In this document: positions 1 through 61,272 of the stretch, piece after piece
How the letters are laid out: the number at the start of each line of letters is the position of its first letter
How positions within the stretch are numbered: the first letter of the stretch is position 1
Origin: Patescibacteria group bacterium
Lineage (GTDB): Bacteria > Patescibacteriota > Patescibacteriia > 2-02-FULL-49-11
Direction of reading: 5' to 3'
DNA: 64,000 bases
Assembly: GCA_041645165.1 (NCBI GenBank)
Contig: JBAZQN010000006.1
Location: 4,933-68,932, forward strand
Position numbers and translations under genes: made by a program
The notes under the pieces: generated by a model
Database searches by the model: none
What the model saw: only the letters and a program-made list of their open reading frames with translations
What the model was told of the DNA's origin: nothing

Positions 1-737
1 CCCACTTCTTGGGCTTTTATTTTTGACATACCGTAGTAAAACAAAAAATAAGCGACGGCCGATGAAAAGAAAACGCCAAAAATAATGCCGATTAGGCCGT
101 TAATATTTAACTGATGAAAACTCCAATTATTTAACTCCCCAACCGCAAAAGGCAAAAAAGTAAGGCTGCCGAAGAGGAAAGAGATTGTAGTTACTTGGTA
201 AGGATTAACTTTTTTTAATATATCTTTACCAAAAATGGTTTGAAAAATGGTTCCAAAAGTAGCAATGAGAAAAAATATATTACCGCCAATCCTGCCGAAA
301 TTCAACACTCCTCCGTTACTTACCACAGGAGATAAAATTACCACTAATACCCCAAAAAGCGCAATCATCATCCCGGACAACACTTTGAATTTTGGTTTTT
401 CGTGTAAAAATATGATGGAAAATAAATAGATAAAGACAGGCCCTGAACAAGCGATTATCGGCACATTAATGCTGGTTGACTTTGGTAATCCTAAAAAGAA
501 AAAACTGATGTTGATGGTCACACCAAAAAAACCAACTAAAAGAATCTCTAGCCACTGCCGCATATTTATCTTCTGCCAATGGTGAATTGCCAGGGGTATG
601 AAGATTAATCCCGCTCCAAAAAACCTGATAAACGCTAAGGTAAAGGGAGGAATATTCTCGAGGGCAAATTTAAAAATCGGCGCAGCAGCGCCCCAGATAA
701 TGTTGGTAATAATCAAGGCAGTGATGGGATTCATAAA

Positions 738-1226
738 TTATTTTTTCCAAGTTGTATTAATTTGCTTTATATTGTTAATTTTTTCTTTTTTAAAAAATTT
801 AATAAACAAGAACACTATCCCACTGATCACTAAGAATAAAGCTAGCCATCGTTTAAGAAGTTCTCTATAATAAGTCTTCTCTAAAAAAGTGTACTTCTCG
901 CCTATGTTTCCTTCTATGTACTCATAACCTAATTTTTCACAACATGGTTCAATATCTTTTAAATAAACAGTCGCTGTTAAATCGCATTGCTCAAATTTAT
1001 TAGCAATACTCCTATCATTATATTCAAGCTTCCAACCAGGTGGAACACTAAATGATTTTGAATTAAAACCCTCACCTTTGGCAGAAATATAAAAACCACA
1101 CTGTTGAGTTGTCTCATTTATAGCGTAACCAGTCGTAGGACCTAAAGCATTAACAGAGCTCGTAAGATATAAACAATTAATAATTATTAATACTAAGCTA
1201 GCCAAAACAATTTTCTTTTTAGACAT
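738..1226 (-). CDS. hypothetical small secreted/membrane-anchored protein (paralog 1 of a tandem pair)
   Basis: 162-aa ORF. N-terminus MSKKKIVLASLVLIIINCLYL is signal/TM-like. Lies in a ~30% GC AT-rich block. Next ORF has the same MSKKKI + TM start. Confidence 0.45.
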   Translation of the reverse strand: MSKKKIVLASLVLIIINCLYLTSSVNALGPTTGYAINETTQQCGFYISAKGEGFNSKSFSVPPGWKLEYNDRSIANKFEQCDLTATVYLKDIEPCCEKLGYEYIEGNIGEKYTFLEKTYYRELLKRWLALFLVISGIVFLFIKFFKKEKINNIKQINTTWKK

Positions 1227-1240
1227 AAAAGTTGTGTAAT

Positions 1241-1684
1241 CTATTTACTTTTCTGTTTATCTTTAAATAATAACAATTTCACTATTAAAAAATACAGTGA
1301 CATATAAATGGGTAGCGTTAACAAATAATAGTAATTATATTCCCTGATACCAAAGCCATGCCACTTAGATGCCAACCAAGGAAATGGAAAACCATATTTT
1401 ACTATTTCTTCTTGTGCGTCTGCGACACTGGCATGTTCTATGCTCCATAAATCATCCGATTCAGAACTATTTTTATCATAATAATCACGGTTACTGTAAT
1501 CCTTAAAATAAATAGTAACAAAAAATAATTTTATAGTTACATCTCTTAAACATCGGGGATTAGAGTCGACATTGACATAATTATGACCATAAACATTAAA
1601 ACAATGGTCATAAAAAAATATTATTTTATAGCTTAAATTTATGCAGATTAGAATAATAAATAAAATAATTTTCTTTTTAGACAT
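1241..1684 (-). CDS. hypothetical small secreted/membrane-anchored protein (paralog 2)
   Basis: 147-aa ORF with N-terminus MSKKKIILFIILICINLSY. Tandem with previous ORF and equally AT-rich. Confidence 0.45.
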   Translation of the reverse strand: MSKKKIILFIILICINLSYKIIFFYDHCFNVYGHNYVNVDSNPRCLRDVTIKLFFVTIYFKDYSNRDYYDKNSSESDDLWSIEHASVADAQEEIVKYGFPFPWLASKWHGFGIREYNYYYLLTLPIYMSLYFLIVKLLLFKDKQKSK

Positions 1685-1900
1685 AAAATTGTTCTCTATT
1701 ATGATGATAAAATTAGTATCTAGAACTATTTGAAGTGGTAATAAGTCGGCTCAATTCCCTCCATTTGAGCCGATAACTAAATCCCTAATCGGCTCATTCG
1801 CGCCGTGTTTGAGCCGAAAGATCCCGCGGTTTGAGCTGTTTCTTTATTAGTATCTGCTGACTAGGCTCACCCTAACCCATTATCATTTCTTCTGCGCCTT

Positions 1901-1946
1901 TTGAGGATGAAATATGCGCTTCATCCACTCAATCATGCCTAGAAGG
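1901..1946. repeat. direct repeat copy 1: diverged duplicate of the P-type ATPase 3' end (translates to ...HPQKAQKK*)
   Basis: 37/37 nt identical (ggatgaaatatgcgcttcatccactcaatcatgccta) to 2468-2504, which encodes the real C-terminus ...MIEWMKRIFHPHKKGKD*. Confidence 0.7.
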
Positions 1947-1978
1947 TCAGAATTACTCATGTTTTTAATAAACATGCA

Positions 1979-2410
1979 TTAACTAAGTTTTTTAATAAAC
2001 CTGATTGCTTTATTAATTTTATAGATTTCTTTAACCACGCAATAGGGTAAAATCACTAAAATGATAAATAGCATTATGAACAAAATCAAAATAACTGGGA
2101 ATAAATCTTTATCAATGAATTGAAAAAAATCTTTACTAAAAACATCTTTACTAAAAAAGGATATAATCATTATCATTATAAAAAGATATACAGATACTAA
2201 AAATAGTCTACCAAACTTTTGTCGTGTTAATTCAACAATATTTTTATCTAATATTATCAAATTGTATAAAAAGTTATTTTGTTTCGCTAAACATCCTTTA
2301 TGATAAAATAATACAGTATGCAATAAGGAAGCCGCACCTAAATAATCCCGCTCAGCAATAATCAAATCGTCCCTGGAATATATTTCTTTTTTGCATTGAT
2401 AACATTTCAT
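1979..2410 (-). CDS. hypothetical zinc-ribbon (CxxC...HxxC) membrane protein
   Basis: 143-aa ORF with N-terminal C-x2-C ... HKGC, followed by two hydrophobic segments. Sits between the two direct-repeat copies of the ATPase 3' end. Confidence 0.35.
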   Translation of the reverse strand: MKCYQCKKEIYSRDDLIIAERDYLGAASLLHTVLFYHKGCLAKQNNFLYNLIILDKNIVELTRQKFGRLFLVSVYLFIMIMIISFFSKDVFSKDFFQFIDKDLFPVILILFIMLFIILVILPYCVVKEIYKINKAIRFIKKLS

Positions 2411-2445
2411 ATTTTATTTCATTAAAGTATCAAAAATCTTTAAAT

Positions 2446-5178
2446 TTAATCTTTTCCTTTCTTGTGTGGATGAAATATGCGCTTCATCCACTCAATCATG
2501 CCTATAAAGACGCAGGAAATGAAGAGGATAAGCAGCCAGTCATGCGGTAAGAGAGGTACGGTGCCAAAGAGGTGCTGTAGCGCGGGGATGTAGATTACGG
2601 CGACTTGGAGCAATAATCCCGTGACGGCAGCAAGGATGAGCATGGGATTCCGCATAAATGGGATCCGCCAAATCGGCTCCTGCAGGGAGCGCAATGAAAA
2701 TACATAAACCGTGGCAGTGACCGAGAGCGTCGTGAATGCTATGGTCCGCGCAAGTTCCAGGGAATGGAACATATTCCAATAGAAGATGAAAAGGAGAAGA
2801 CTTAATATGGCAGAACAGGTGCTAATCGCGCCGATCAACCAGCGATGCTCGTGCATAAGAATAGATTCCCCTCTTACCCGCGGCTTTTCGCGCATGAGGG
2901 CGCGGTTGGCCGGCTCCTGGGTAAGCGCGAGCGCGGGAAACGTGTCAGTGACAATATTGACCCATAAAATTTGAGCAGGAAGATAGGGAAGGGGCCACCC
3001 CATCAGAAGCGCAAAAGTAATCGCAATGGTTTCCGTAAAGCTGTTAGAAAGCATATAAAGCGCCACGGTGCGGATATTATGGTAGATAAGCCTGCCCTCG
3101 CGTATGGCGCTCGTCATAGTGCGGATATGATTATCGAGAAGCACTATGTCCGACGACTCCTTTGCCACATCAGTGCCGCTCCCCAAGGCAACGCCGATGT
3201 CAGCCGCTTTCAAGGCGGGAGCGTCATTCACCCCGTCCCCTGTCATCGCAACCACCGCGCCTCTCGCTTTCCATGCCGCGATAATGCGGAGCTTGTCTTC
3301 AGGCGTTGCGCGGGAAAATACCGCAATATTATTTATCTTTTCCGCGAGCGCATTGAGCGAGAGTTCCTTGAGTTCGCTTCCATCCATTACCCTTCTTGCG
3401 CCCTTTAATAACCCAAGCGTTCGCCCGATGGAAGTGGCGGTAAGGCGATGATCGCCGGTTATCATGACCGTGCGGATGCCTGCTTTTTCCGCTTCCGCAA
3501 TGGTTTCCACCGCACCCTCGCGCAGAGGATCTTGGATGCCGATAAAGCCAAGAAATATCAAATCATGAAGAGGATTAACCATCTTTTTCAGCTCCCGTGC
3601 GTCTCTGCGTGCCTCCCTTTTCGTAATGCAGAGCACCCGCAATCCTTGTCCGCTCATGCGTTCCACTTTTTTATTCAGCGCATCTATCCCCTCACGGCTT
3701 AAAGGCACCACTCGGCCAGATTCGTCTTCTACATACTTGATAAAAGGGAGAAGGATTTCTGGCGCGCCTTTTACATAGAGCACGTCCTTTACGCTTCCCT
3801 CTGCCGCGGATGCGCGATGGAGCGTGCACATATATTTATCCTTTGAATTAAACGGCTGTTCAGCGCGGCGAGGATAGAGGTTCCGTAATGCGGCGACATC
3901 TATCCCATGGTCGAGAGCGGCGCGCATGAGCGCCCTGTCAGTGGTATTACCCGTGGCCACAGGGCCCGAAACAGCTCCCCCCATCTCATACGGCGCGGCA
4001 TCATTGCATACCACCATGGCAGTGACAAGCTCCTCTAACCCAGCATGTAAATCGTTTAACGCACGTTCGCGCAGTATATTGTAGGAACGAAGGTATGTGT
4101 CCATCCGCACTACTTGCATCTCCCCCACGGTGAGCGTGCCTGTTTTATCGGCACAGATGACGGATGTCGCACCGAGCGTTTCTGCGGCATGGAGCTTTTT
4201 TACGAGCCCTTTCTGCGTTAAAATTCTCTGCATGCCGATCGCAAGCACCACGGTAACAGCAATGGTAAGCCCTTCTGGAATCGCCGATACCGCAACTGCA
4301 ATCGCGGTCGCAAACATATCTGCAATCCCCTCTCCTTGAAAAATGCCGAATCCGAAAATTAATAGAACCACGACAATAATCGCAAACGCGAGCTCGCGTC
4401 CGAATCGGTTTAATTGCTTCTGGAGCGGCGTGCGCTCTTCCGGCGTTCGCGCAAGAAGCAGGGCAATATGCCCTACCTGCGTATGCGCACCCGTGGCCAC
4501 CACGAGCCCGCTTCCCCGTCCCGCAGTCACGACCGTACCAAACCAAAGCATGTTGATCTGTTCCGCAAGCACGCGTGCGGTATGAAGGGTGCGGACATCC
4601 TTTTTCGCGGGGTGCGATTCCCCCGTGAGCATGCTCTCATTGGCCTCCAGGGCATGCTCCGATAATAGGCGAATATCCGCGGGCACGCGGTCACCCGCCT
4701 GTACGGAAACGATATCGCCGGGCACCAGTTCCTCCTGCGGCACTTCCACGAGCGCGCCATCTCGTAGAACCCGCGCTTTGGTGACGATGACCTTCTGTAG
4801 CGCGGCAAGCGCATGCTGCGCACGGCGCTCTTGGAACGCGCCCACCGCTACATTTATGAATACCGCACCCAAAATAACCTGCGCATCGACTACATCTCCC
4901 AGCATGAAACTCGCCACAGACGCCGCGATCAGTATGACGACTAAAACATTGGCAAACTGGCGGAGCAGAATGAGCAAAAAGAAGTTACGATTCTCACGAT
5001 GCGGCAACACATTATTACCCCACTGCGTGCGGCGCTCGAGCGTCTCTCTCGTGGTAAGCCCTTGCGGGGTTGCGTGCAATTCCTGGAGGATCTCCTTGCC
5101 TGAACGCAATGAAAATGACCCCCCCGGAGATTGCCCTCCGAGCGGCTCTGCTTCCTTTTTTTGTCCCAGGTTAGTCAT
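2446..5178 (-). CDS. cation-transporting P-type ATPase (P2-type, Ca2+/Mg2+-like)
   Basis: 910 aa. Motifs: ICADKTGTLT (phosphorylation site), MITGDHRLTA, TGDGVNDAPALKAADIGVALG. Cation-ATPase N-domain and 10 TM-like segments. Confidence 0.9.
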   Translation of the reverse strand: MTNLGQKKEAEPLGGQSPGGSFSLRSGKEILQELHATPQGLTTRETLERRTQWGNNVLPHRENRNFFLLILLRQFANVLVVILIAASVASFMLGDVVDAQVILGAVFINVAVGAFQERRAQHALAALQKVIVTKARVLRDGALVEVPQEELVPGDIVSVQAGDRVPADIRLLSEHALEANESMLTGESHPAKKDVRTLHTARVLAEQINMLWFGTVVTAGRGSGLVVATGAHTQVGHIALLLARTPEERTPLQKQLNRFGRELAFAIIVVVLLIFGFGIFQGEGIADMFATAIAVAVSAIPEGLTIAVTVVLAIGMQRILTQKGLVKKLHAAETLGATSVICADKTGTLTVGEMQVVRMDTYLRSYNILRERALNDLHAGLEELVTAMVVCNDAAPYEMGGAVSGPVATGNTTDRALMRAALDHGIDVAALRNLYPRRAEQPFNSKDKYMCTLHRASAAEGSVKDVLYVKGAPEILLPFIKYVEDESGRVVPLSREGIDALNKKVERMSGQGLRVLCITKREARRDARELKKMVNPLHDLIFLGFIGIQDPLREGAVETIAEAEKAGIRTVMITGDHRLTATSIGRTLGLLKGARRVMDGSELKELSLNALAEKINNIAVFSRATPEDKLRIIAAWKARGAVVAMTGDGVNDAPALKAADIGVALGSGTDVAKESSDIVLLDNHIRTMTSAIREGRLIYHNIRTVALYMLSNSFTETIAITFALLMGWPLPYLPAQILWVNIVTDTFPALALTQEPANRALMREKPRVRGESILMHEHRWLIGAISTCSAILSLLLFIFYWNMFHSLELARTIAFTTLSVTATVYVFSLRSLQEPIWRIPFMRNPMLILAAVTGLLLQVAVIYIPALQHLFGTVPLLPHDWLLILFISCVFIGMIEWMKRIFHPHKKGKD
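2465..2510. repeat. direct repeat copy 2 (functional 3' end of ATPase gene)
   Basis: Same 37-bp core as 1905-1941. Lies inside CDS 2446..5178. Confidence 0.7.
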
Positions 5179-7249: not shown

Positions 7250-9508
7250 TTAGATCATTGCTGATTTCTTCTTTCGAATAAATAGCCTTACCCCTGCGGC
7301 GAGCGCAACCAATATTGGCACACCGATAAGATTAAACAACCTCACCCTCTGCCGCAGAGTGTCGCTCGGGAACCCGAGGGGGCTCGGGATGCGCGTCTTG
7401 GACCGCACGCTGATAAGCGCTTCATCCTGCGTCAGCCAATCAACGGTATTCAACGCAAAGGTCAAATTGGGGCTTCCTTCCTGCATGAACTGATCACTCG
7501 CCATTTTCGCGCTCCCCACCAACACCAACCTCCCGCTCTTCTTGAGGGTTTGCCCTGCGGAAGAGTGCACCACCATGGACACTGCAGCAATATTCTTTCC
7601 GAGCTCATCCTTATTTGCCTTTAAGGGAGCTTGAGGGTCAATATTCACAGGCAGGGACTTCGCAAATCCGCCGTCAGTGGTGGTGAGAAGTTCCTGTATT
7701 TCATTACCCTCGCCTTTATCGGTCCGCTCGACTAACGACGCCCATGGTAACATTACCGAAGTGAGATCTCCTGCAATGGGGTTCGCCGTAACCACATGCG
7801 CGCGCACCCAATAGGGATATGGCAGGATCAGGGAAAGGAACCCGCTCTGGATGGTCACATTCTCATACGAACGCACATCGGCAAGGATCCGGGGGGCGAC
7901 ACGGGCGCCGAATGGAGCAAAGAGATCCCCGTTTGAATCAACATACTCCTGCGCGGTAAATGTCTGTGCATCCACGTTCGCCCTATCAATAAATGCCAGC
8001 ATACTTCCTCCTTGCTCAATGTAATTCCGGATGGCCTGCACTGCGCTGTCGCCAAGATCTTGAGTTGGCCCTAAGAGGATCGCTGCATCGGTTTCCTGGG
8101 CGATAACCGGCGTGGACGTGCTCATATCTGTATCAGTAACCGCGTCTAATCGGCTCAGCGCCTGGCGGAATGCGCCCGCAGGCTCCTCCCCGAAACCAGT
8201 TAGAAAGGTGACATTAGCTTTCTTGGGATCGGTAAGCGATTTAATGGACCTCAAAAGCCGGTATTCCAAATCATCGCTCCGATCGATAAAGGGGATCACT
8301 TCTTTCCCGTCTGTATACAAAGTAGCGAGGCCAAACATACCCTTTTGGGCTTGAAATACATCCTTTTCGAGCACATTGAACTGCATCTCGGTGATGCCTA
8401 ACGCCCTCGCCTCCTCTATCGCATCCGACCCTTCCTCCACGTTTTTATATTCCACCACGACATTCCCTCTCCCCTGTGATTGAAAATCTGACAGTAAATC
8501 TTGCACATCGCGTTTTACCAACGCGATCTGGGAAGGCAACTCTTTGGTGGAAAAAAGCTTAATGGTCACGAGATCCGGCAGTGCGCGCACAATAGTTTTC
8601 GTGGCAGGAGACAATGTATAGACGCGATTCTGGGTAAAATCAATGCGCCCCCGAAGGTATGCGCCCGCAAGGTTGAGCCCAAGGGTAAGTACTATAATAA
8701 GCATCGATCCATAAAAATACCGGCGTCGCTGAGGCGCATGGGGCGACAAACGTTCACGCATGAGGAGCCACCCCGCGATGCCAAAAGCCGCACCGCTCAC
8801 GGTTATGAAATATACAAAATCCCGTATGTCCAACACGCCCCTCGTTATATTGTAATAATGGGCGCTGATCGAGAGATGTTCTGCCACCACGCGTACTGAT
8901 GCAGGGAGGCCGACGGTGACGACCTCTGCCCCTGCGATCGTGAACACGAAACTCACCCCCGCGCTGATAAGGAACGAAGTCACTTGGTGGCGCACTCCTG
9001 CGGAGGCCGCAAGGCTAATGCATGAAAACACAAACGCCAAAAACATGGCGCCGAGATATTGCGCCGCCACAATGCCGAAATCAAAACTGCCAAACCCTCG
9101 CAGGGTTAAAACCACCGGCAACGTGAGGATAAACGTGATGAGGAAAAACGACCATACGGAAAGCAGTTTCCCTGCCAAATACACCCATGGATTCACCGGC
9201 TGCGCGAGCGCCGTTTCAAGCGTCCCTGATTTTCTCTCTTCCGCAATAAGCCGCATGCTCACCGCAGGGACTAAGAAAAGCAGGAGCCAGGGAAAAAGCT
9301 CAAACATCGGCCGCAAGGTGGCGATGGGATTAACGGCAAGTGAACGAAAATAAAAAAATGAATTGAATACGAGGGCAACGATAAGCAGGAGGTAACCGCC
9401 GGGATGGTCAAACCACGCGCGGAGTTCTCGTTGTACGATGGCAATGATTTGTCGAACCGCTATCATACAAAAATAATTACTAGATCTATTATCGTTTATA
9501 ATTCTCAA
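7250..9508 (-). CDS. fused ABC-2 type permease / GldG-like auxiliary component
   Basis: 752 aa. N-terminal ~250 aa has 6 TM (ABC-2 permease-like). A large extracytoplasmic domain follows, then a C-terminal TM anchor (LFNLIGVPILVALAAGVRLFI). Adjacent to the ABC ATPase gene. Confidence 0.65.
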   Translation of the reverse strand: MRIINDNRSSNYFCMIAVRQIIAIVQRELRAWFDHPGGYLLLIVALVFNSFFYFRSLAVNPIATLRPMFELFPWLLLFLVPAVSMRLIAEERKSGTLETALAQPVNPWVYLAGKLLSVWSFFLITFILTLPVVLTLRGFGSFDFGIVAAQYLGAMFLAFVFSCISLAASAGVRHQVTSFLISAGVSFVFTIAGAEVVTVGLPASVRVVAEHLSISAHYYNITRGVLDIRDFVYFITVSGAAFGIAGWLLMRERLSPHAPQRRRYFYGSMLIIVLTLGLNLAGAYLRGRIDFTQNRVYTLSPATKTIVRALPDLVTIKLFSTKELPSQIALVKRDVQDLLSDFQSQGRGNVVVEYKNVEEGSDAIEEARALGITEMQFNVLEKDVFQAQKGMFGLATLYTDGKEVIPFIDRSDDLEYRLLRSIKSLTDPKKANVTFLTGFGEEPAGAFRQALSRLDAVTDTDMSTSTPVIAQETDAAILLGPTQDLGDSAVQAIRNYIEQGGSMLAFIDRANVDAQTFTAQEYVDSNGDLFAPFGARVAPRILADVRSYENVTIQSGFLSLILPYPYWVRAHVVTANPIAGDLTSVMLPWASLVERTDKGEGNEIQELLTTTDGGFAKSLPVNIDPQAPLKANKDELGKNIAAVSMVVHSSAGQTLKKSGRLVLVGSAKMASDQFMQEGSPNLTFALNTVDWLTQDEALISVRSKTRIPSPLGFPSDTLRQRVRLFNLIGVPILVALAAGVRLFIRKKKSAMI

Positions 9509-9660
9509 TTTTCAAATCTCAATTTTCAAATAATTTTTAATGAATCAATGATGCAATGTTTGAAAATTGAATCATTGCGATATTGATTGTCCCGCCGCAA
9601 CGGGATCCCGCGTCCGCGGGAAAAATTGGAAATTGAATATTGAAAATTCTAACTCTCTAT
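9505..9660. repeat. AT-rich palindromic intergenic element (family E'), paralogous to 31030-31140, with a GCGGGATCCCGC hairpin
   Basis: Shares caattttcaaataattttt?aatg...caatgtttgaaaattgaa with 31040-31120. Core is gtcccgccgcaacgggatcccgcgtccgcggga. Confidence 0.6.
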
Positions 9661-10581
9661 GGTAAGCTCCCGAAATACCTCCTCAAGGCTTTTTTCTTCT
9701 TCGTATAATTCCGCAATGACCCAGCGGTGTTCAACCGCACATTGAAATACCGCTGTCCGTATATCAACGTCACGCGGGGTGAGGAGCTCAAAACGCTTAA
9801 ATTTATTTTTTTGATTCCCCTCGAACGCTTCCACGCGCGCGACGCCTCCGAGTTTCTCTAATGTTTCCCGAATCCCGCTCCCCTGTGCTTCCACGACCGT
9901 CCGCTTTTCACCGCTTGCGCGGTGTTCTAGTTCATCCACGGTGCCGTCAGCGACAATGCGGCCTTCCCGAATCACTATCACCCGTGAACAGGTCATCGCA
10001 ACTTCAGTAAGGACATGCGTGGAAAGAAGCACTGTTTTTTCCCGTCCCAAGCGTTTTATCAATTCCCTTATTTCATGCCGCTGATTCGGGTCCAACCCTT
10101 CGGTGGGTTCGTCAAAAATAAGGATATCCGGATCTCCCACGATCGCCTGCGCCAAGCCCACCCGCTGGCGAAAACCTTTTGAGAGCTCGGCAATGGGGCG
10201 GCGCCATACCTTTTCAAGGCCGGCAAGCCCAATCGCGCGTTCAACTGCACTCTTTTTGTCCGCTCCCCACATCCCATGGAGCGCTGCGGTATAGTTAAGC
10301 GCCTGCGTCACGAGCAAGTCTTCATGCAAAGGATTATTTTCAGGCAGATATCCTAAACGTTTCTTCAAAGAAAGAGGATCCTCCAATGCATTTTGGCCGT
10401 CAAAATTTATTTCACCCTTATCAGGCTCCAAGACCCCCGCGATTATCCTCATCGTGGTCGTCTTGCCGGCGCCGTTGGGACCCAAAAATCCTATCACTTC
10501 GCCCTTTGAAATGGAAAAAGTGAGCTCATCAACCGCTTTCACCTTGCCAAATGATTTGGATATTTTATCTAACGTGAGCAT
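9649..10581 (-). CDS. ABC transporter ATP-binding protein
   Basis: Walker A GPNGAGKTTTMR, signature LSKGFRQRVGLA, Walker B ILIFDEPTEGLD. Annotated start is the ATG at 10579-10581 (MLTLDKISKSF). The 9 upstream codons of the tracked ORF translate the element TIR. Confidence 0.9.
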   Translation of the reverse strand: MLTLDKISKSFGKVKAVDELTFSISKGEVIGFLGPNGAGKTTTMRIIAGVLEPDKGEINFDGQNALEDPLSLKKRLGYLPENNPLHEDLLVTQALNYTAALHGMWGADKKSAVERAIGLAGLEKVWRRPIAELSKGFRQRVGLAQAIVGDPDILIFDEPTEGLDPNQRHEIRELIKRLGREKTVLLSTHVLTEVAMTCSRVIVIREGRIVADGTVDELEHRASGEKRTVVEAQGSGIRETLEKLGGVARVEAFEGNQKNKFKRFELLTPRDVDIRTAVFQCAVEHRWVIAELYEEEKSLEEVFRELTIES

Positions 10582-10815
10582 ACCCCGTATATCAACATCC
10601 AACGCCAAACGCGGCTGGCATTGGAGAAAACCATAATATGAATGCGATCTTAGAGTATTGTATCATAACAAGATTGGAAGATAACGTTTGGCGATCGGTG
10701 AGGGAGGCTATGTAAAAATCTACCATACGTTCAATCCGCATCCAGTCGTACCTCATCTATTATTTTCTGCACAAAGGTTCCCGCCTCCCTCTTGGATGTT
10801 GTATTGCGGGGCATA
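10579..10815 (-). repeat. family A TIR element copy A1 (MITE-like, ~237 bp), abutting the start codon of the ABC ATPase gene
   Basis: TIRs are cataccccgtatatcaacatccaa ... ttggatgttgtattgcggggcata. Internal nested inverted repeats cgccaaacg/cgtttggcg and gagggagg/cctccctc. The terminal CAT (=ATG) is the gene start. Confidence 0.75.
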
Positions 10816-10875
10816 ACGCCTTATCATAGAAAACACAGCGCGGCTTTCGGCTGTGTTTCCCATCGTATTAATCTT

Positions 10876-12126: not shown

Positions 12127-14091
12127 TTATTGCCCTAAAGACCGCACCGCCTGTAGTATAGCACCTCTGTCAATTTCCTCAAAACCCAATAATTCCGCGG
12201 GCGTGCCGCTCTTCGGAGTTTTGCGCACTGCGAGTGATTTAAACGCGGCGCCAGTGCCCGCGATTGCTTCTGCCACCGCCTCTCCCAATCCCCCTTCCGG
12301 CACATGGTCTTCCACGGTAATAATCTTGCCTGTCTCTTGAGCCGCCCTTACGAGCGCCGCGCGATCGATGGGTTTTAGAGAATAACAATCTATGATTCTC
12401 AATTCAATTCCTTCTTGCGCCAAAGTATCTGCCGCGGCAAGCGCTTCAAAAAGGGTAATGCCGGCGGCAACGATAGTGCAGACGTCTCGCGCGCTTGACC
12501 TTAACGTCTTACTGCCGCCGATCGGAAACTGTTCCTCCGGACCATAAATGACAGGCGTTGCTCCGCGTGTCGTGCGGAGGTAAACAATGCCATTATAACG
12601 CACAGCTTCATGAACTAGTCTTTCCGTAGCAGGGGCATCTGACGGATAAAGCACCACTGCATCCTGCACCGCCCTAAACATGGCAATGTCCTCGAGCCCC
12701 ATCTGGCTGGGGCCGTCTTCGCCGATAGACACGCCTGCATGCGAACCCACAAACTTCACATTCGCTTTGCTGTACGATGCCATCCTGATCTGGTCAAAGG
12801 CGCGGGTAAAGAACGCCGCAAAAGTGCTGCAAAACGGGATCATACCTCGCTTCGCAAGCCCTACGGCGACACCCACCATATTCTGCTCCGCGATAAACAT
12901 TTCCACAAACTGCTGGGGGGTGCCCTTCTTCACCAATTCTGCAAAGGTGGAATTTTTCACTTCAGCGTCCACCGCCACCACCCGCGGATCCTCACGCGCC
13001 AGTTTCTCCAACGCTTCCCCATACGCTTTCCGCGTCGCGATCAAGTCTCCCTTCTTGTACTCGGTATTAGGTATTACGTATTTCGTATTATGCACTTGAT
13101 CGCTCGCCCCCTGATACCTACTACCTGATACCTGATACGAAACGTCTGGCATTGCAACTGTCCCTCTTAATCGAGTATCAATTTCTCTCAACTCCCCTAA
13201 TGCTTTTTCATATTCTTCAACAGAGAGCGCTTTGCCATGCCACCCTTCCTTATTCTCCATGCACGACACACCCTTCCCCTTTAGGGTCTTTGCGATAATC
13301 ATGGTTGGTTTATCTTGTGTACCCTTAGCCTTGCGATAGGCAGAGAGTATCTCATCAGTATTATGGCCATCCACTATAATCGTTTCCCAGCCAAATGCGG
13401 CGACCCTTCGGGCATACGCGTCCACATCGTGGCCCGCCATAGTCTCTCCGCTCTGCCCCAAACGGTTCACGTCTATAATACCGACTAAATTATCCAGTTT
13501 TTCATGCCCCGCCCACATGATTGCCTCCCACACCGAACCTTCTGCCATTTCGCTGTCTCCGAGAAGCACATACACGCGTGAAACACACCCCTCCTCACTC
13601 CGTTCGGTACCCCTCTCAAGAGGGGAATTACCCGAAGTCCCCTCCTGCGGAGGGGTGTCCCGCCATTGAGGGACGGGGTGGGTAAACCGCTTCAATGCGA
13701 GCGCCATGCCTGCACCTACTGACAGCCCCTGTCCGAGCGAACCAGTCGCCACTTCCGTATAGCGAAACGTCGGCATAGGATGCCCTTCCAGGGGTGAATT
13801 AAATTTTCGCAATGATAAAAGCTCATCTTCGTTTACCGCTCCCGCAGCCGCATAGAGCGCATACAACAAGGGAGCAGCATGCCCTTTAGAAAAAATCACT
13901 CGGTCATTCAAAGGATATTCCGGATGGTCAAGGTCAAAACGCAAAATGCCGCCAAAGAAAAGTACTGTCATGAGATCGGTCGCGGAGAGCGAAGAGCTCG
14001 GATGACCAGACCCTGCCGCGGTCGTCGCGCGAAGGATAAAATAGCGCACCAGCTGCGCGAGATTTTCAAGAGTTTCTTTCGTGGTTTGCAT
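12127..14091 (-). CDS. tkt: transketolase (single-chain short form)
   Basis: GHPSSSLSATDLM...SKGHAAPLLYA (TPP-binding N-domain), plus pyrimidine-binding and C-terminal domains. Contains an extra ~30-aa loop (HPVPQWRDTPPQEGTSGNSPLERGTERSEEGCVS) encoded by a palindromic insert. Confidence 0.9.
   Translation of the reverse strand: MQTTKETLENLAQLVRYFILRATTAAGSGHPSSSLSATDLMTVLFFGGILRFDLDHPEYPLNDRVIFSKGHAAPLLYALYAAAGAVNEDELLSLRKFNSPLEGHPMPTFRYTEVATGSLGQGLSVGAGMALALKRFTHPVPQWRDTPPQEGTSGNSPLERGTERSEEGCVSRVYVLLGDSEMAEGSVWEAIMWAGHEKLDNLVGIIDVNRLGQSGETMAGHDVDAYARRVAAFGWETIIVDGHNTDEILSAYRKAKGTQDKPTMIIAKTLKGKGVSCMENKEGWHGKALSVEEYEKALGELREIDTRLRGTVAMPDVSYQVSGSRYQGASDQVHNTKYVIPNTEYKKGDLIATRKAYGEALEKLAREDPRVVAVDAEVKNSTFAELVKKGTPQQFVEMFIAEQNMVGVAVGLAKRGMIPFCSTFAAFFTRAFDQIRMASYSKANVKFVGSHAGVSIGEDGPSQMGLEDIAMFRAVQDAVVLYPSDAPATERLVHEAVRYNGIVYLRTTRGATPVIYGPEEQFPIGGSKTLRSSARDVCTIVAAGITLFEALAAADTLAQEGIELRIIDCYSLKPIDRAALVRAAQETGKIITVEDHVPEGGLGEAVAEAIAGTGAAFKSLAVRKTPKSGTPAELLGFEEIDRGAILQAVRSLGQ
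13575..13680. repeat. in-frame GC-rich triple-hairpin insertion inside tkt
   Basis: Three hairpins: cccctctcaagagggg, cccctcctgcggagggg, gtcccgccattgagggac. Lies between the conserved GQGLSVGAGMALA and RVYVLLGD motifs. Confidence 0.6.
14041..14091. repeat. direct repeat: tkt 5' end (copy 1, functional start)
   Basis: tagcgcaccagctgcgcgagattttcaagagtttctttcgtggtttgcat, ~90% identical to 16950-17000. Confidence 0.75.
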
Positions 14092-14219
14092 ATTTTTTAT
14101 TGAGTACTTATTTAACCAAATCCAAACCTATTTTAAACGGTACTGATAACGTGCCTTGCTCCCCGATAGCCCAAATGCTCGAACGATGCGGACAAAGAAA
14201 GGCGCTCTGAAGTTGAATG

Positions 14220-14984
14220 TTAAAAATTTCCAAAAATCATTATACACCGTGAGCTTTTATTTTGGTCGAACTTTTTATGAACGTTAAAATCACCCAAGAG
14301 TTTCTTTAATTTCCATCTCTTCCCTAATAAACTCTTAACTTCCTTCACCGTGAGATATTGCTGCGTCTCAGTGTCTTGGATTACACGCCTCTCTCCAGTC
14401 TTTTTATTAGTAATTGTGTAAACGTAACTTGATTCACGAATCCTATTTTGATTAATAATCCAATCTCTGGTCACCGTTAACTGGTATTGCTTATTATTTA
14501 CTGGAGCATAGGTCTTGTGAAATTCTCTCATCGTTATATAACGATAGAAATTCGCTTCTTCTAATATGATTACTTGTTTTATGTGGCTTTTTAACCAATG
14601 AAAAAAATGTTTGCGCCCCTTTGCGTTCAGAATGTAAGGAAATGTGGACCACATACAAATCGCTGCATCATAATTTTTTTGAAGCGCTATGGTCTCAAAA
14701 GTTCCCTGTGCGGTCTTTAATTGGATATACCCTTTTTTCGCTTGAAGCAGCGCATTCTTCGACTGGTCAAATATAGTTACATCGTACCCTTGAGAAGCAA
14801 GGATCTTAGAATGCATGCCCACCCCGCCACCGAGATCGATAATGGTCTTAACCTTTCCCCCAAAAGTTCCCACAACTCCTAAAATAAATTCCGTCTCGTC
14901 TTTCTCTGCTCCTTTCCGTTCCTCTAAACTTTCACGAAAAAGTGGGTAAAGGTTGGTAAGTCTTTCGTACATCAACGTTTTCAT
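14220..14984 (-). CDS. class I SAM-dependent methyltransferase
   Basis: Motif I IIDLGGGVGMHS and acidic loop DVTIFDQS. Located in the AT-rich island. Confidence 0.7.
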   Translation of the reverse strand: MKTLMYERLTNLYPLFRESLEERKGAEKDETEFILGVVGTFGGKVKTIIDLGGGVGMHSKILASQGYDVTIFDQSKNALLQAKKGYIQLKTAQGTFETIALQKNYDAAICMWSTFPYILNAKGRKHFFHWLKSHIKQVIILEEANFYRYITMREFHKTYAPVNNKQYQLTVTRDWIINQNRIRESSYVYTITNKKTGERRVIQDTETQQYLTVKEVKSLLGKRWKLKKLLGDFNVHKKFDQNKSSRCIMIFGNF

Positions 14985-15769
14985 ACTGACCTTTTTTTAC
15001 TTAAAACTTGGACTATCTCTTTATGATTCAATGAATTGGCCGCGACATAACTGGGCTGATATAGATCAACTCTTTGACCCTTAAAATTGGTCACTTTCCC
15101 TCCCGCCTCTCGGACAATAAGGCTTCCGGCAGCCCAATCCCATGGTTTATCTACACGATCAATACATCCATCAATTCTTCCCAACGCGAGATAAGCGAGT
15201 ACCGTACATGCTGAATTAAAAATTCTCACCTCTCTCGTTTTGCCAACAAACCGATAGAGGATGCCGACATCTGCCCTATTAAAGTATGTTTCAGACGCAA
15301 GTATCGAATCTTTCAAGAGCCTGCGAGAAACTGAAAGTCTCCTTTTGCCCGCATAGGCACCGTGACCTTTGACCGCACTTAAGAGGAGATTTTCGCTAGG
15401 GAGATAGAGTACGCCGAGTATAATCTCGCCATTCATCTCTAACCCTATGGAAACGGAAAAAAGAGGGATTCCTCGTGCATAATTCGGGGTACCGTCAAGT
15501 GGGTCAATAATCCATTTATAGCCTCTTGTTAGAGAATATGCGGATGAAGACTCCTCCGCGAGGACAGTAAAATCTGGGGTCTCCTTTTTTAGATGCTCAA
15601 GGATAATTTTTTCACTTTTTATGTCTGCTTCCGTCACCCACGTTTCATCGTTTTTTCTATGAACCTGGATGGCGTCGTTTCGAAATTGTTTCATGAGGTA
15701 GTGACCAGCTTTCTCTGCTGCTGTCGAGGCTATCTTTAAACAAAAACCTAAATTCCCTTTACTATTCAT
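14981..15769 (-). CDS. inositol monophosphatase-family phosphatase (SuhB/HisN-like)
   Basis: IMPase motifs WIIDPLDGTPNY and …WDWAAG…. Confidence 0.8.
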   Translation of the reverse strand: MNSKGNLGFCLKIASTAAEKAGHYLMKQFRNDAIQVHRKNDETWVTEADIKSEKIILEHLKKETPDFTVLAEESSSAYSLTRGYKWIIDPLDGTPNYARGIPLFSVSIGLEMNGEIILGVLYLPSENLLLSAVKGHGAYAGKRRLSVSRRLLKDSILASETYFNRADVGILYRFVGKTREVRIFNSACTVLAYLALGRIDGCIDRVDKPWDWAAGSLIVREAGGKVTNFKGQRVDLYQPSYVAANSLNHKEIVQVLSKKRSV

Positions 15770-15771
15770 AT

Positions 15772-16908
15772 CTATCCCAAAATACCTTTAATGGCATGTA
15801 ACACCCTGTTATTCGATTCCTGATCCAAAACAGTGATGCGCACAAAATGATTATGGAATTGCTTACTCATTGAATCGCAGTTCCTGATATACACACCCTT
15901 ATCTTTAAGCTTCTCGATTAACAGAGAGGCGGATATCTTTTTAAGCTGGCAAAGAATAAAATTGGTGACTGATGGAAAAGTCACTAATCCCGGGAGCTTG
16001 GCTAACTCTCTAAACAATAATTTTTCAAGTTTATGTGTTTTTTCTATTTTTTTGGCATAATATTTCCAATTTGAAATAGCAGCTATTGCCGCCATCTGAC
16101 CTGGCAGGCTAACCGACCACGGTGGAATACGCAAAATAAGGCTTTTTGTGATACTTGCATTTGCGATAAGATACCCCACACGCAATCCCGAGAGAGCATA
16201 AATCTTTGACATAGATTTCAATATGCACAGATTAGGATGCTGATCCACTAAAGTCTCACATGATTCATGATGTCCTACATATTCGATATATGTTTCATCA
16301 ACTATAATCATAGTATTTTTGGGAACAGCGGCAATAAACTCTTGCACTTGTGCACGAGTCATATAGGTACCTGCCGGGCTATTAGGATTTACTATAACAA
16401 CTACCTTCGGTTTGTGCTGAATAACATCTTTGATTAGCTGGCTAAGGGAAACTTGAAAATTATTTTCTGGTTTTAAAGCATGAGAAACGATTTTACAACC
16501 TACTACCTTCTCCATTACGTGCAGGTACTCTCCATACATGGGATCAATAATCATGGCGAGATCCTTTTGCGTAAAAAGAATTTCTAAGAGCAAAAAAATT
16601 AATTGGGACGAACCTGTTCCGCATGAGATTAACCTTTCGGGGACCTCTCTAGTTTGTGATATGGTTTTTATGAGAGATTGCGGTCGCGCGGGCGGACTTG
16701 TATGAATAATGTGCTCTAGATGCTTTCTAAGCACCTGACTAACTGCGGGGGCAGGCGGATACCATGCATCAAGAACATCAGCGGGTATTATAGTATGACC
16801 AAGCTCAGAAATTCGACTAAAATCATACTTAAACTTTTCCCAAAAGCTTCCGCCATGAAATGCCGCGACATCAATTTGCCCTTTTCTCATTTTGCCGGTA
16901 TTACTCAT
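15772..16908 (-). CDS. class I/II PLP-dependent aminotransferase (HisC/CobD-like)
   Basis: 378 aa with PLP-lysine context SMSKIYALSGLRVGY and N-terminal fold-type I. Confidence 0.75.
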   Translation of the reverse strand: MSNTGKMRKGQIDVAAFHGGSFWEKFKYDFSRISELGHTIIPADVLDAWYPPAPAVSQVLRKHLEHIIHTSPPARPQSLIKTISQTREVPERLISCGTGSSQLIFLLLEILFTQKDLAMIIDPMYGEYLHVMEKVVGCKIVSHALKPENNFQVSLSQLIKDVIQHKPKVVVIVNPNSPAGTYMTRAQVQEFIAAVPKNTMIIVDETYIEYVGHHESCETLVDQHPNLCILKSMSKIYALSGLRVGYLIANASITKSLILRIPPWSVSLPGQMAAIAAISNWKYYAKKIEKTHKLEKLLFRELAKLPGLVTFPSVTNFILCQLKKISASLLIEKLKDKGVYIRNCDSMSKQFHNHFVRITVLDQESNNRVLHAIKGILG

Positions 16909-16949
16909 AAACTCTCAGCATAACAGCAGACAAAACGTCTTATGATTTA

Positions 16950-17000
16950 GTAGCGCACCATCTGCGCGAGATTTTCAAGAGTTTCTTTCGATGCTTGCAT
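16950..17000. repeat. direct repeat: displaced duplicate of tkt 5' end (encodes MQASKETLENLAQMVRY)
   Basis: tagcgcaccatctgcgcgagattttcaagagtttctttcgatgcttgcat. Bounds a ~2.86-kb AT-rich island together with 14041-14091. Confidence 0.75.
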
Positions 17001-17029
17001 ACAATATTATGGTGCAGTATTCTAAAGAT

Positions 17030-18302: not shown

Positions 18303-18405
18303 TGAAATTCGAAATACTAAATCCGAAATCCTAAACCGTTTTGGATTTTGGTAATTGGAATTTTGGGTTTGTTTAGGATTTAGAGTTTAGGATTTAGGAT
18401 TTTCA
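18303..18405. repeat. low-complexity palindromic spacer (family E; AAATCCTAAA.../...TTTAGGATTT arms)
   Basis: gaaatactaaatccgaaatcctaaaccgttttggattttgg...gtttaggatttagagtttaggatttagg. Confidence 0.6.
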
Positions 18406-18411
18406 TTAAGG

Positions 18412-24135: not shown

Positions 24136-24196
24136 GAAGTTAGAAGCTGAAATTTGGAATTAACAATACCGTATACAATAATCCGATAGCCTCTTG

Positions 24197-24248
24197 TCAT
24201 TCCCGCCCCGTATCACGGTACGGGGTAAACTCCGGCGGGAATCCAGAA
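24197..24248. repeat. nested GC hairpin element family G copy 1
   Basis: cattcccgccCCCGTATCACGGTACGGGGtaaactccggcgggaatccagaa. Inner stem is 7 bp; outer is attcccgcc/ggcgggaat. Confidence 0.6.
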
Positions 24249-26592: not shown

Positions 26593-26635
26593 TGAAGATG
26601 ATTATTAGTAGACTTTCCCAATTGCCCTCACTGTC

Positions 26636-26688
26636 ATTCACGCCCCGCATCACGGTACGGGGTAAACTCCGGCGGGAATCCAGAACAA
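26636..26688. repeat. family G nested hairpin copy 2
   Basis: cattcacgccCCCGCATCACGGTACGGGGtaaactccggcgggaatccagaa. Confidence 0.6.
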
Positions 26689-37667: not shown

Positions 37668-38066
37668 TTACTTAATCCTCTCTTTAACCTTTTCTTTCCC
37701 TATTGCCTCATGCTCTCCTTTACCGAGTCGTGCCACTCTCTCTCCCAACACCAAAATGACATGGCTGGTCCTGCGGAGGATGGGATTTGCGCGGCCCATC
37801 GCCCGCGGAAAAGTCCTTTTCAGTGAAGGCCCCCCGTCAACGCGTATCTCCTTCACGTAAAGATTGATAGACTCAAGGTGAAAATTATGTTTCGCGTTCG
37901 CTACACCTGATTCCACAAGCTTTTTCAAAGGCTTTGCGCTATGATGCGCATCAAACGAAAGGAGCGCAATTGCTTTAGTGGCATCGATCCCTTTTATGGT
38001 CTCAGCCACCAGCCGCACCTTCCTTGGCGCCATCCGGAGATACCTTAATTTTGCAGTGATGTCCAT
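37668..38066 (-). CDS. rplV: 50S ribosomal protein L22
   Basis: MDITAKLRYLRMAPRKVRLVAETIKG…. Confidence 0.9.
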   Translation of the reverse strand: MDITAKLRYLRMAPRKVRLVAETIKGIDATKAIALLSFDAHHSAKPLKKLVESGVANAKHNFHLESINLYVKEIRVDGGPSLKRTFPRAMGRANPILRRTSHVILVLGERVARLGKGEHEAIGKEKVKERIK

Positions 38067-38170
38067 ACCCGCCTAAATTTTGCACCAGTCTGGTGCACTT
38101 AATTTCTTAATAACGATTACTCGACCTATTGTATCTCACTATTGTTCCTGCCCGCAAAACTTAGGCGGGC
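38064..38170 (-). repeat. family B TIR element copy B3. Left TIR supplies the rplV ATG; right TIR overlaps the rpsS stop codon.
   Basis: CATacccgcctaaattttgcaccagtctggtgcacttaatttc…cccgcaaaacTTAggcgggc. TTA at 38161-38163 is the rpsS TAA. Confidence 0.75.
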
Positions 38171-39481: not shown

Positions 39482-39486
39482 ACCTT

Positions 39487-39610
39487 AATGGAAAATACCA
39501 AACTCTAAATCCTAAATAAATACAAAATTCGAAAATTCAAAAACAAAGTTTCGTCGTTTTTATTTTTTGGATTTGTTTAGAGTTTAGAATTTAGTGCTTA
39601 GGATTTATCA
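39487..39610. repeat. family E low-complexity palindromic spacer
   Basis: aaaataccaaactctaaatcctaaataaatacaaaattcg…ttggatttgtttagagtttagaatttagtgcttaggattt. Confidence 0.6.
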
Positions 39611-39615
39611 CTTTG

Positions 39616-40077: not shown

Positions 40078-40240
40078 TAAATCCTAAATACTAAACTCTA
40101 AATCCTAAATTGCTCCTGTTGGGTGCCGAACTTTGAATTTCGGTCATTAAGATTTATTTAGGATTTCTCCCGCTCCTTGATTTTTTCTTTCTAAGGTATG
40201 CGGGATCCCGCCTGAGCGGTGAGGATTTAGTGCTTTGTAT
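40078..40240. repeat. family E palindromic spacer plus family H GCGGGATCCCGCC motif
   Basis: taaatcctaaatactaaactctaaatcctaaattg…ggtcattaagatttatttaggattt, then ggtatGCGGGATCCCGCctgagcggtgagg. Confidence 0.55.
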
Positions 40241-56327: not shown

Positions 56328-56546
56328 TTAGTTTTTGATTAAATCATCAACGCCAACATCCAACGCTTTGGCGATTCTCGTTAGTGTTTCAATAGTTGGG
56401 TTTGGGTTTGCTCCCGATTCCACTGTAACCACGGTATTAAGCGACAAATCCGCCAGCTTGGACAGGCGATCTTGGGAAATACCTTTGTCCTGCCGGATTT
56501 TCTTCAAGTTTTTGGCTATTTTTGAACCTTGATTATTATTTGACAT
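56328..56546 (-). CDS. XRE-family helix-turn-helix transcriptional regulator
   Basis: 72 aa. …LKKIRQDKGISQDRLSKLADLSLNTVVTVESG…. Confidence 0.75.
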   Translation of the reverse strand: MSNNNQGSKIAKNLKKIRQDKGISQDRLSKLADLSLNTVVTVESGANPNPTIETLTRIAKALDVGVDDLIKN

Positions 56547-57026
56547 AGGTCTTTGGAAGATATACCATTATATTGTATAGGTTAAAAAGTATCCTTTTAC
56601 TTTCATCAATTACAATGATAACAAATTTCAAAAGACTTGTCCAAACAAAAGGGAGTTCCTACTTGTCGCCCGCGCACGGGAAGGGTGGGGCAAGGGCGAC
56701 TATTCTTTTTCTTTTGGACCCGCCGCCCGAAAAATCCGCTGGGGGTTTCCAGCAGGTGGGCAAAAAGGAAGGGGGTTGGGGGGAAGGAATTTTTGCCCAT
56801 CTGCTCTCCGCGCCGAAGGCGCGGCTGAGGTGGGAGCGGCTCCGCTCTCTTGCTCCTTCAAGAGAAGCAAAGCAAAACATTTTTCAATTCCTTTTAGAAG
56901 AAAAAGGGTCGCGCACCAAAATTGAAAAAAGAGAAAAATGTTTTGCTTCGCGCCGCCGTCAGGCGGGCGGAGCCGCAGGACGGGTCAGTTTCGTTCAAAG
57001 TAGGTTCGCACTGCGTTCAGTAATTG

Positions 57027-57175
57027 CGACCAAGTTAGACATTGACAGTTTTCGGAAGAAGGTACGCGCTCGCTTCGCTCGCGCGCTGGGGGGATTTTAT
57101 TCTGATTTTCCGCCACAATCCGCCATTCGCCCGACCAATCCCAGCCGACTTTTTTGGAGAGCAGGCGGCGGTTCG
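57027..57175. repeat. perfect 149-bp inverted repeat, left copy (IR-L), immediately upstream of the serine recombinase gene
   Basis: Reverse complement of 57027-57175 is identical to 58661-58809. Confidence 0.85.
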
Positions 57176-57291
57176 GGTGCGCGAAGCGCACAACAAATGA
57201 AATTTGTATCCAATTTTTTCCTTTCCGCCAAAGGCGGAATACGAAGCCAGTTTTTTAATCCCGCGCTTTACGGCCAAAGGCGACTAACAAT

Positions 57292-61137: not shown

Positions 61138-61272
61138 GAAATCCTAAACACTAAACTCTAAACCCTAAACAAATCTAAAATCCAAATATCAAAATCCAAA
61201 ATGTAAATGTAAAATCTATAAATTTTAATCTATCATTTTGATTTTTGCATTTTGGATTTTACATTCCTCCCC
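61138..61272. repeat. family E low-complexity palindromic spacer
   Basis: aaatcctaaacactaaactctaaaccctaaacaaatctaaaatccaaatatcaaaatccaaaatg…ttttgatttttgcattttggatttt. Confidence 0.6.

Follow-up and report, generated by a model that had tools for sequence, protein, structure and literature searches.

Gene order and the direct repeat at the ATPase 3' end

We analysed a stretch of 64,000 nucleotides (the window) from a Patescibacteria group bacterium (contig JBAZQN010000006.1, positions 4,933 to 68,932), in which the tail of a gene for a P-type ATPase is duplicated and a short AT-rich insert with a single orphan gene lies between the two copies. The genes in the series at the window start are all on the minus strand, and so is every feature described below for this region. 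The ATPase gene (2446-5178, 910 amino acids), which hosts the insertion, was assigned to the P-type ATPases (P2-like, cation) by its Pfam matches to E1-E2_ATPase, Cation_ATPase_N, Cation_ATPase_C and Hydrolase (HAD). The direct repeat that duplicates its final codons consists of copy A at 2461-2507, which is attL-like and lies within the ATPase reading frame, and copy B at 1898-1944, which is attR-like. Between the copies there are 516 bp of unique DNA (1945-2460) with a GC content of 23.4%, containing ORF143 (1979-2410). The gene-attached tail of the ATPase, which ends ...P HKKGKD and a stop codon, occupies 2446-2467. Another tail, GMIEWMKRIFHPQKAQKK with its stop codon, stands detached from the gene at 1883-1939 and is of the type found in orthologs, and a spacer with two hairpins follows at 1741-1882. 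The GC content is 54% in the ATPase gene, 23% in the unique insert and 47% in this spacer.

The two repeat copies match at 44 of 47 nt (94%), with a distance of 563 nt from start to start, and share an exact core of 37 nt (1905-1941 and 2468-2504). An exact match of this length is far beyond chance for a region of 2.5 kb. The original prediction, which was made from the sequence of the window, had described 45-bp direct repeats duplicating the ATPase C-terminus; the duplication is real, with its limits refined to the positions given here. The three mismatches (A/C, A/T and C/A) all fall within the outer ten positions of the repeat, for which our own combinatorics give p ~0.007 under random scatter (C(10,3)/C(47,3)). 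Because the mismatches are confined to the outer ends, the repeat is better described as an identical core with imperfect arms than as a once-perfect duplication that has decayed. The core also holds a perfect 7-8-7 inverted repeat, GGATGAA-GCGCATAT-TTCATCC, a pattern that occurs in about 1% of 47-nt windows.

ORF143 is the sole ORF between the repeat copies, in agreement with the original prediction of a single membrane-protein ORF (there called zinc-ribbon) at this place. The 143-aa product carries Cys3, Cys6, His37 and Cys40 in an N-terminal CxxC...HxxC arrangement, followed by two hydrophobic segments at about 64-92 and 95-132. A single-sequence AlphaFold2 model (mean pLDDT 67, below 50 at the N-terminus) predicted long helices at 46-90 and 93-142, and was too weak for a fold search. 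A search of 5.8e9 protein clusters and a full HMMER search of 1.84e9 representatives both returned only ORF143 itself. Pfam gave no match for ORF143 or for the two neighbouring small ORFs, ORF147 and ORF162, and BLAST of the insert against phage and plasmid collections found no match. When the 738-2445 block was simulated 2000 times with matched composition, a stop-free run of at least 143 codons appeared 3 times, and three same-strand ORFs of 143-162 codons tile this block. From the rarity of such runs and the same-strand tiling, the three ORFs are very probably real coding sequences, or were so until recently.

The ancestral tail and the variable slot behind the ATPase gene

Four close relatives of the ATPase, with identities of 91, 90, 88 and 83%, were found on Uhrbacteria/Patescibacteria contigs, and the next best had 54%. 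The related loci are referred to as L001 to L007 and represent four lineages, among which L005 (91%) is the closest and L004 the most distant; the L007 lineage is Candidatus Uhrbacteria. The C-termini of the four relatives read ...HPQKK, ...HPQKAREK, ...HPQKAIKNK and ...HPYSGQKRT. In the window, the detached tail at copy B reads ...HPQKAQKK before its stop codon, and the gene-attached tail at copy A reads ...HPHKKGKD. The detached tail agrees with that of L001 at 23 of 27 nt, whereas the gene-attached tail matches the detached tail at only 15 of 27; the first 15 nt of the gene-attached tail resemble the L005-type tail CATCCACAGAAGAAA. The relatives carry a single tail copy, of the copy-B type, with the target site intact, and no similar gene-end repeat was found in the related loci.

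The DNA on the far side of the two copies was also informative. All relatives' DNA aligned with the ATPase gene as far as 2458-2467, ending just past the core of copy A. At the detached copy, the alignment to L001 (89% over 63 nt) ran through the stop codon, and that to L004 (74% over 74 nt) continued 17 nt past it. Beyond the stop codon lie two adjacent hairpins, 1746-1773 and 1789-1817, with the common stem TCGGCTCA/TGAGCCGA. The first of them is identical at 28 of 28 nt in L004 (12801-12828), about 60 nt 3' of the ATPase stop codon there. The hairpins have no T-tract and so are not a classical terminator, and the overall folding of the 1700-1900 region was no better than that of shuffles (z = -0.67) despite these two conserved local structures. 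Rfam and tRNA scans of 1-2510 gave no match, and a promoter/terminator scan was uninformative in the AT-rich DNA here. With an ortholog-type tail and a conserved hairpin flank at copy B, and loss of homology directly after the core of copy A, these alignments identify copy B together with 1741-1882 as the original 3' end and flank of the ATPase gene. By the same comparison, the current tail HPHKKGKD, with its stop codon, is a substitute that came with the insert.

The insert and ORF143 are absent from L001-L007, that is, from all four related lineages. The places that the ATPase is followed by in these loci differ in other ways as well. In L005, only 12 nt separate the ATPase stop from the start of a gene for an EamA-family transporter. 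L002 and L003 have one 80-aa gene between the ATPase and EamA. In L001, L006 and L007, a 160-aa gene comes after the ATPase, then an AAA_14 ATPase gene, a 98-aa gene and an insertion sequence. In L004 the hairpin comes first, then genes for an 89-aa protein, a transglutaminase-like protein, a 277-aa protein and AAA_14; no EamA gene lay on the DNA examined for L001/L007 and L004. Judging from these contigs, each related lineage sampled has its own version of the ATPase-EamA interval, which is thus a hot spot. In L003 (9486-11068), EamA is cut to 138 aa by an IS630-like transposase gene (HTH_23/HTH_32 and DDE_3), while it is intact at 303 aa in the otherwise matching L002.

In the window, this interval ends at the EamA-family transporter gene (1-734; Pfam EamA, E=7e-35), of which the first 244 codons lie inside the window and which runs off its left end. 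The complete copy, coding for 306 aa, is present in a Logan contig of 4 kb (L008), which was found through ORF162 and ORF147 and adds 2.1 kb to the left of the window with EamA, NYN and MFS genes. The EamA DNA is 82-86% identical to L002, L003 and L005, which marks it as a conserved flank and not as island DNA, despite its GC content of 38%. The original prediction had treated the whole AT-rich block at 1-2510 as bounded by the repeats. On the present evidence only 1945-2460 is so bounded, with EamA and 1741-1882 both lying outside any island.

The remaining part of the block is filled by ORF162 (738-1226), an orphan, and ORF147 (1241-1684), which lies in the hypervariable slot outside the repeat-bounded insert. 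Both encode small membrane or secreted proteins starting with MSKKKI, and have 27-29% GC. They had been regarded as paralogs, a relationship that the comparison does not support: a stretch of 27 nt around the start codon is 96% identical between them, and beyond these roughly eight common codons no homology was detectable (BLASTP E=1). A homologue search with ORF162 returned only itself. In each of the other three lineages with contigs long enough, namely L002/L003, L001/L007 and L004, the start sequence ATGTCTAAAAAGAAAAT, which encodes MSKKKI, occurs downstream of the ATPase. The start sites are at 1210-1226 and 1668-1684 in the window, and at 12800 in L002, 2387 in L007, 16811 in L004 and 8551 in L001. 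The gene in L002/L003 directly follows the ATPase stop, and that in L004 has an early stop; L005 shows no MSKKKI gene, its contig ending 250 nt into EamA. In four lineages, the nucleotides of ATGTCTAAAAAGAAAAT and a few bases upstream of it are conserved before otherwise unrelated small Cys-containing or membrane ORFs, and the motif ACTAATTTTATCAT is common to the regions upstream of ORF147 and of the 98-aa gene of L007. The MSKKKI genes thus look like a resident family of fast-evolving small secreted or membrane proteins that fills the slot.

No third, degenerate copy of the ATPase tail was detected by blastn-short and tblastn in the window or in the 2.1 kb to its left. Since MSKKKI ORFs occur at the slot in other lineages and no third tail copy flanks them, they are not islands of the ORF143 type. 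The proposal of one or more small islands in the ATPase 3' end therefore stands for one, with its ancestral copy B and its ORF143 lacking in relatives, and falls for the rest of the block. The rest had been given the same logic as an island at the start of the tkt gene (described below), which does not fit DNA with no third tail copy, no mobility gene and genes resident in other lineages. The original prediction had also named two findings that together would reduce the repeat to a local duplication. One of them was obtained, since neither another repeat nor a mobility gene turned up; the other was not, since the orthologous loci are arranged differently.

The ATPase gene is itself a recombination mosaic. 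Over gene positions 997-1221 its identity is 93-98% with L005 and 74-80% with L001 and L002; over the first 320 nt it is 74-80% with L005 and 85-88% with L001. In the last 150-225 nt ahead of the core it is closest to L002. This mosaicism shows that homologous recombination is frequent among the lineages. The window also encodes ComEC (62485-63996) and RecR. A second P-type ATPase gene (53608-56325, 905 aa) was considered as the source of the duplicated tail and was rejected, because this paralogue is 38% identical to the first and has an unrelated C-terminal tail.

Possible routes of insertion

The alignments establish an insertion with the boundaries given above, the polarity in which copy B is the ancestral copy, and the absence of the insert from the relatives. 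The order of ATPase body, core, new tail, cargo, core and old tail corresponds to the attL/attR topology of elements that target the termini of protein genes. We consider it somewhat more probable than not, and more so than any rival, that 563 bp of foreign or sister-lineage DNA (one repeat included) were taken into the chromosome by a single crossover across the core, giving a product that resembles an integrase-less islet of the type described below for cis-mobilizable elements (CIMEs); the crossover mechanism is inferred. In this process, a circular DNA bearing a mimic of an ATPase gene's final codons would have undergone one reciprocal crossover within the 37-nt stretch identical to the ATPase 3' end (a Campbell-type topology). 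The ATPase would then read through the core into the insert-supplied tail HPHKKGKD and stop, and so stay intact, while the original tail, stop codon and hairpin flank would have been moved 563 bp downstream as a dead remnant. The L005-like start of the new tail, the mosaicism of the ATPase gene, and the presence of ComEC and RecR in the window suggest that the mimic derives from a related ATPase gene. As no recombinase is encoded in cis, the crossover may have been made by a site-specific enzyme of the tyrosine type, acting in trans or since lost, which would leave a CIME-like state. Alternatively, host homologous recombination may have acted on a circularised fragment from a related lineage.

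A comparable arrangement is found at the start of tkt. The first 19 codons of this gene are duplicated (14035-14092 and 16944-17001, 58 nt, 88% identity, with a 29-nt exact run), and the repeats flank an island at 14093-16943 with 40% GC, carrying methyltransferase, inositol monophosphatase and aminotransferase genes. The tkt locus has the same architecture as the ATPase insertion, which counts in favour of the single-crossover insertion. The tkt block is present in L002, upstream of tkt, with about 90% identity, the same divergence as that of core genes, and is absent in L004; the remnant tkt start resembles the L002 allele. From its presence in L002 at core-gene divergence, repeat-flanked additions of this kind can be old and stable.

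Several observations weigh against a single crossover of this kind. The insert, the ATPase-EamA interval and the 2.1 kb to the left of the window (EamA, NYN and MFS) all proved free of integrase and other mobility genes. Pfam scans of 46 window ORFs gave no tyrosine recombinase; the set takes in all selected ORFs of 200 aa or more with the exception of the three tkt-island genes, which were judged by the precomputed Pfam hits of their L002 orthologs (Aminotran_1_2, Inositol_P and Methyltransf_25), none of which is a recombinase. The sole recombinase found in the window is a large serine recombinase (57292-58887) 55 kb away. An exact-match search with a 23-mer of the conserved core, in which diverged sites could be missed, hit nothing but ATPase orthologs among JGI metagenome contigs and GTDB genomes and had no hit in IMG/VR, and thus gave no attP-like copy outside ATPase orthologs in these three collections. 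The insert, at 0.5 kb, is far below the usual size of integrative elements. The 7-8-7 inverted repeat of the core, a feature also of core sites of tyrosine recombinases, speaks for such an insertion, but it may be incidental, as the coding sequence there is conserved in the relatives.

The large serine recombinase was examined as the possible agent of a cassette like the staphylococcal cassette chromosome (SCC), and this candidate was discarded: the only such enzyme is 55 kb off and the sites share 37 nt, an atypical identity for large serine recombinases, which normally use attP and attB sites sharing only a few bases. The protein has 531 aa with Resolvase, Recombinase and Zn_ribbon_recom domains, and the 3' end of its gene runs into a tRNA-Pro(GGG) gene (58804-58877) on the opposite strand. 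It is preceded by a gene for an XRE-type helix-turn-helix protein (56328-56546) and a 240-aa ORF without Pfam match, and 56328-58887 may be a small integrated element, or the remnant of one, at the tRNA. An element dependent on Xer (IMEX or pdif module) may also come into question. By eye, the core has only GCGCATA in common with the XerC arm of the E. coli dif site and nothing in common with the XerD arm; the dif site and Xer genes of this lineage lie outside the window. A target-site duplication was also considered as the origin of the ATPase repeat and was not adopted.

The missing integrase would be explained if the insert had entered by homology-facilitated illegitimate recombination after DNA uptake, the main rival, which we regard as unlikely though deserving serious attention. 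A linear fragment from a related lineage, with the 3' part of the ATPase gene, its own tail and ORF143, would have been anchored by homology in the ATPase gene, and its far end would have been joined illegitimately just upstream of the recipient core, leaving the last 18 codons as the remnant without any att site or circle. The mosaic of tracts closest to different relatives, the ComEC gene at 62485-63996, the L005-type resemblance of the insert-borne tail and the lack of a recombinase in cis all fit such an event. However, pairing would have to stop short of a 37-nt identity and the join fall exactly at its edge, and the outcome of about 50 nt at the tkt start would require a second coincidence. 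The last 150-225 nt before the core, being closest to L002, are also not those of an L005-like donor. A local origin, by tandem duplication of the ATPase 3' end followed by divergence or by a later insertion, would make ORF143 a gene that was not horizontally acquired, and AT-rich orphan ORFs do fill the neighbouring slot in all lineages, so that low GC and orphan status alone are no proof of a foreign source. We consider this origin improbable, since the DNA after copy A and after copy B is without similarity and differs in GC content (23% and 47%), the mismatches lie only at the repeat ends, and tail A is like the tail of another lineage rather than a decayed tail B.

The contig is metagenome-assembled, and related strains co-exist and recombine, so two co-occurring strains with different ATPase 3' flanks might have been threaded through the shared 37-mer by the assembler. 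ORF162 is recorded from Logan assemblies and ORF143 is not, and contig L008 ends inside the core. Nevertheless, such an artefact is very improbable in our judgement. The junction of the AT-rich ORF143 flank with the core (…CTGACCTTCT joined to AGGCATG…) must exist in reads, from which it follows that at least one genome has the core on both sides of ORF143. A repeat of 37 nt is shorter than the read length and than the larger k-mers of standard assemblers. Over 1934 nt the independent Logan assembly agrees at 100% identity, and its break inside the core is what a true repeat should cause in a k=31 graph. It is extremely improbable that the repeat serves another function, for example as the template and variable repeats of a diversity-generating retroelement (DGR) acting on the ATPase tail. 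DGRs are common in bacteria of the Candidate Phyla Radiation (CPR), and a variable repeat at a gene 3' end would be in keeping with one. However, no reverse transcriptase was found among the scanned window ORFs, the mismatches are not adenine-specific, and the repeat is just 47 nt long and lies in the tail of a P-type ATPase.

Relation to known systems and significance

The insert has in common with integrative islands the flanking direct repeats, one of them in the end of the target gene, and a presence/absence polymorphism among relatives, but no integrase gene lies inside it, ORF143 being its sole ORF. The retained attL/attR-like repeats at the 3' end of a conserved protein gene, the cargo without any mobility gene found, and the intact target gene are as in CIMEs. 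To our knowledge, no CIME-like system has been described in Patescibacteria. CIMEs and decayed remnants left by integrative and conjugative elements (ICEs) or integrative and mobilizable elements (IMEs) are found at the 3' ends of fda, rpsI and rpmG in streptococci, with sizes of 1.2-13 kb for CIMEs and 130-220 bp for microCIMEs (PMC6323972, PMC7563491). The present insert, 0.5 kb long with one orphan gene, falls between these reported size classes. Neither a cognate autonomous ICE or IME (exact search with the core 23-mer in IMG/VR, JGI metagenome contigs and GTDB genomes) nor an integrase using this core was found. The insert is accordingly better called CIME-like than a CIME, and its descent from an autonomous element would be conjecture.

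An island without a recombinase of its own is that for microcin H47 in E. coli, which has imperfect direct repeats and is excised and integrated by host functions, independently of RecA, with crossovers in the identity segments of the repeats (PMC3191183, PMC5426353). That island measures 13 kb and has a defined function, and its mobility was shown experimentally, whereas the insert described here is a static footprint inside the coding end of a gene. In SXT at prfC and SCCmec at rlmH, the end of the target gene is restored by the element. The dusA-specific islands likewise insert in a gene terminus, supply a replacement terminus and leave the displaced original as a repeat (PMC4482086). The ATPase insertion bears a looser likeness to all three, with its position in the terminal codons, the new terminus supplied and the old one kept as a repeat. 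However, they encode their own tyrosine or large serine recombinase and range from kilobases to more than 100 kb, and the insert has neither such an enzyme nor such a size. The ATPase-EamA interval, in differing from lineage to lineage, is also like the flexible slots of population genomics. Double-crossover replacement in flanking genes leaves no repeat, though, and the duplicated gene tail means that the gain here was additive and took place inside the gene.

Other repeats were observed elsewhere in the window. A GC-rich nested-palindrome repeat of 54 nt (24195-24248 and 26632-26685, 96% identical) is intergenic and flanks the genes for L21, DUF192 and a glycosyltransferase-4 protein. The ribosomal-protein cluster contains repeats of 100-200 nt that are up to 96-100% identical (32172-32372, 34977-35177, 36136-36336, 33901-34008 and 38063-38170), with one more copy near 10.6 kb (10579-10816). 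They are associated with plus-strand ORFs of 141-191 aa without Pfam match (32439-33014, 35091-35516 and 35770-36300). Low-complexity arrays of 6-8-nt units, of the type AAATCCTAAATTCTAAACTC / TTTGGATTTGGGATTT, occupy many intergenic regions (18305-18407, 31708-31814, 39486-39611, 40079-40112 and 61139-61204), and similar arrays are present in L004 at about 1150-1290. An AT-rich intergenic repeat of 87 nt (9491-9577 and 31025-31111, 86% identical) lies upstream of two unrelated operons.

The ATPase locus carries a real and well-polarised but ordinary insertion footprint, with orphan cargo in a hypervariable slot. It provides a clean example of gene gain in an uncultured, Uhrbacteria-like CPR bacterium, in which an orphan membrane-protein gene was added within the end of a conserved transporter gene and the latter was not inactivated. 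We think it doubtful, and offer it as a speculation, that integrase-free addition beside conserved genes is a general, undescribed mode by which ultra-small Patescibacteria gain orphan membrane proteins. Short circles or fragments bearing a mimic of a gene terminus of about 50 nt would recombine through an identical core of 30-40 nt, by host recombination and competence functions or by an unrecognised enzyme in trans, keeping the host gene and leaving the displaced terminus behind. If this were true, 64 kb of DNA would hold two instances of the route, one at the ATPase 3' end and one at the tkt 5' end, and a route of general use would be relevant to the way in which streamlined, probably competent, episymbiotic bacteria come by their lineage-specific surface proteins.

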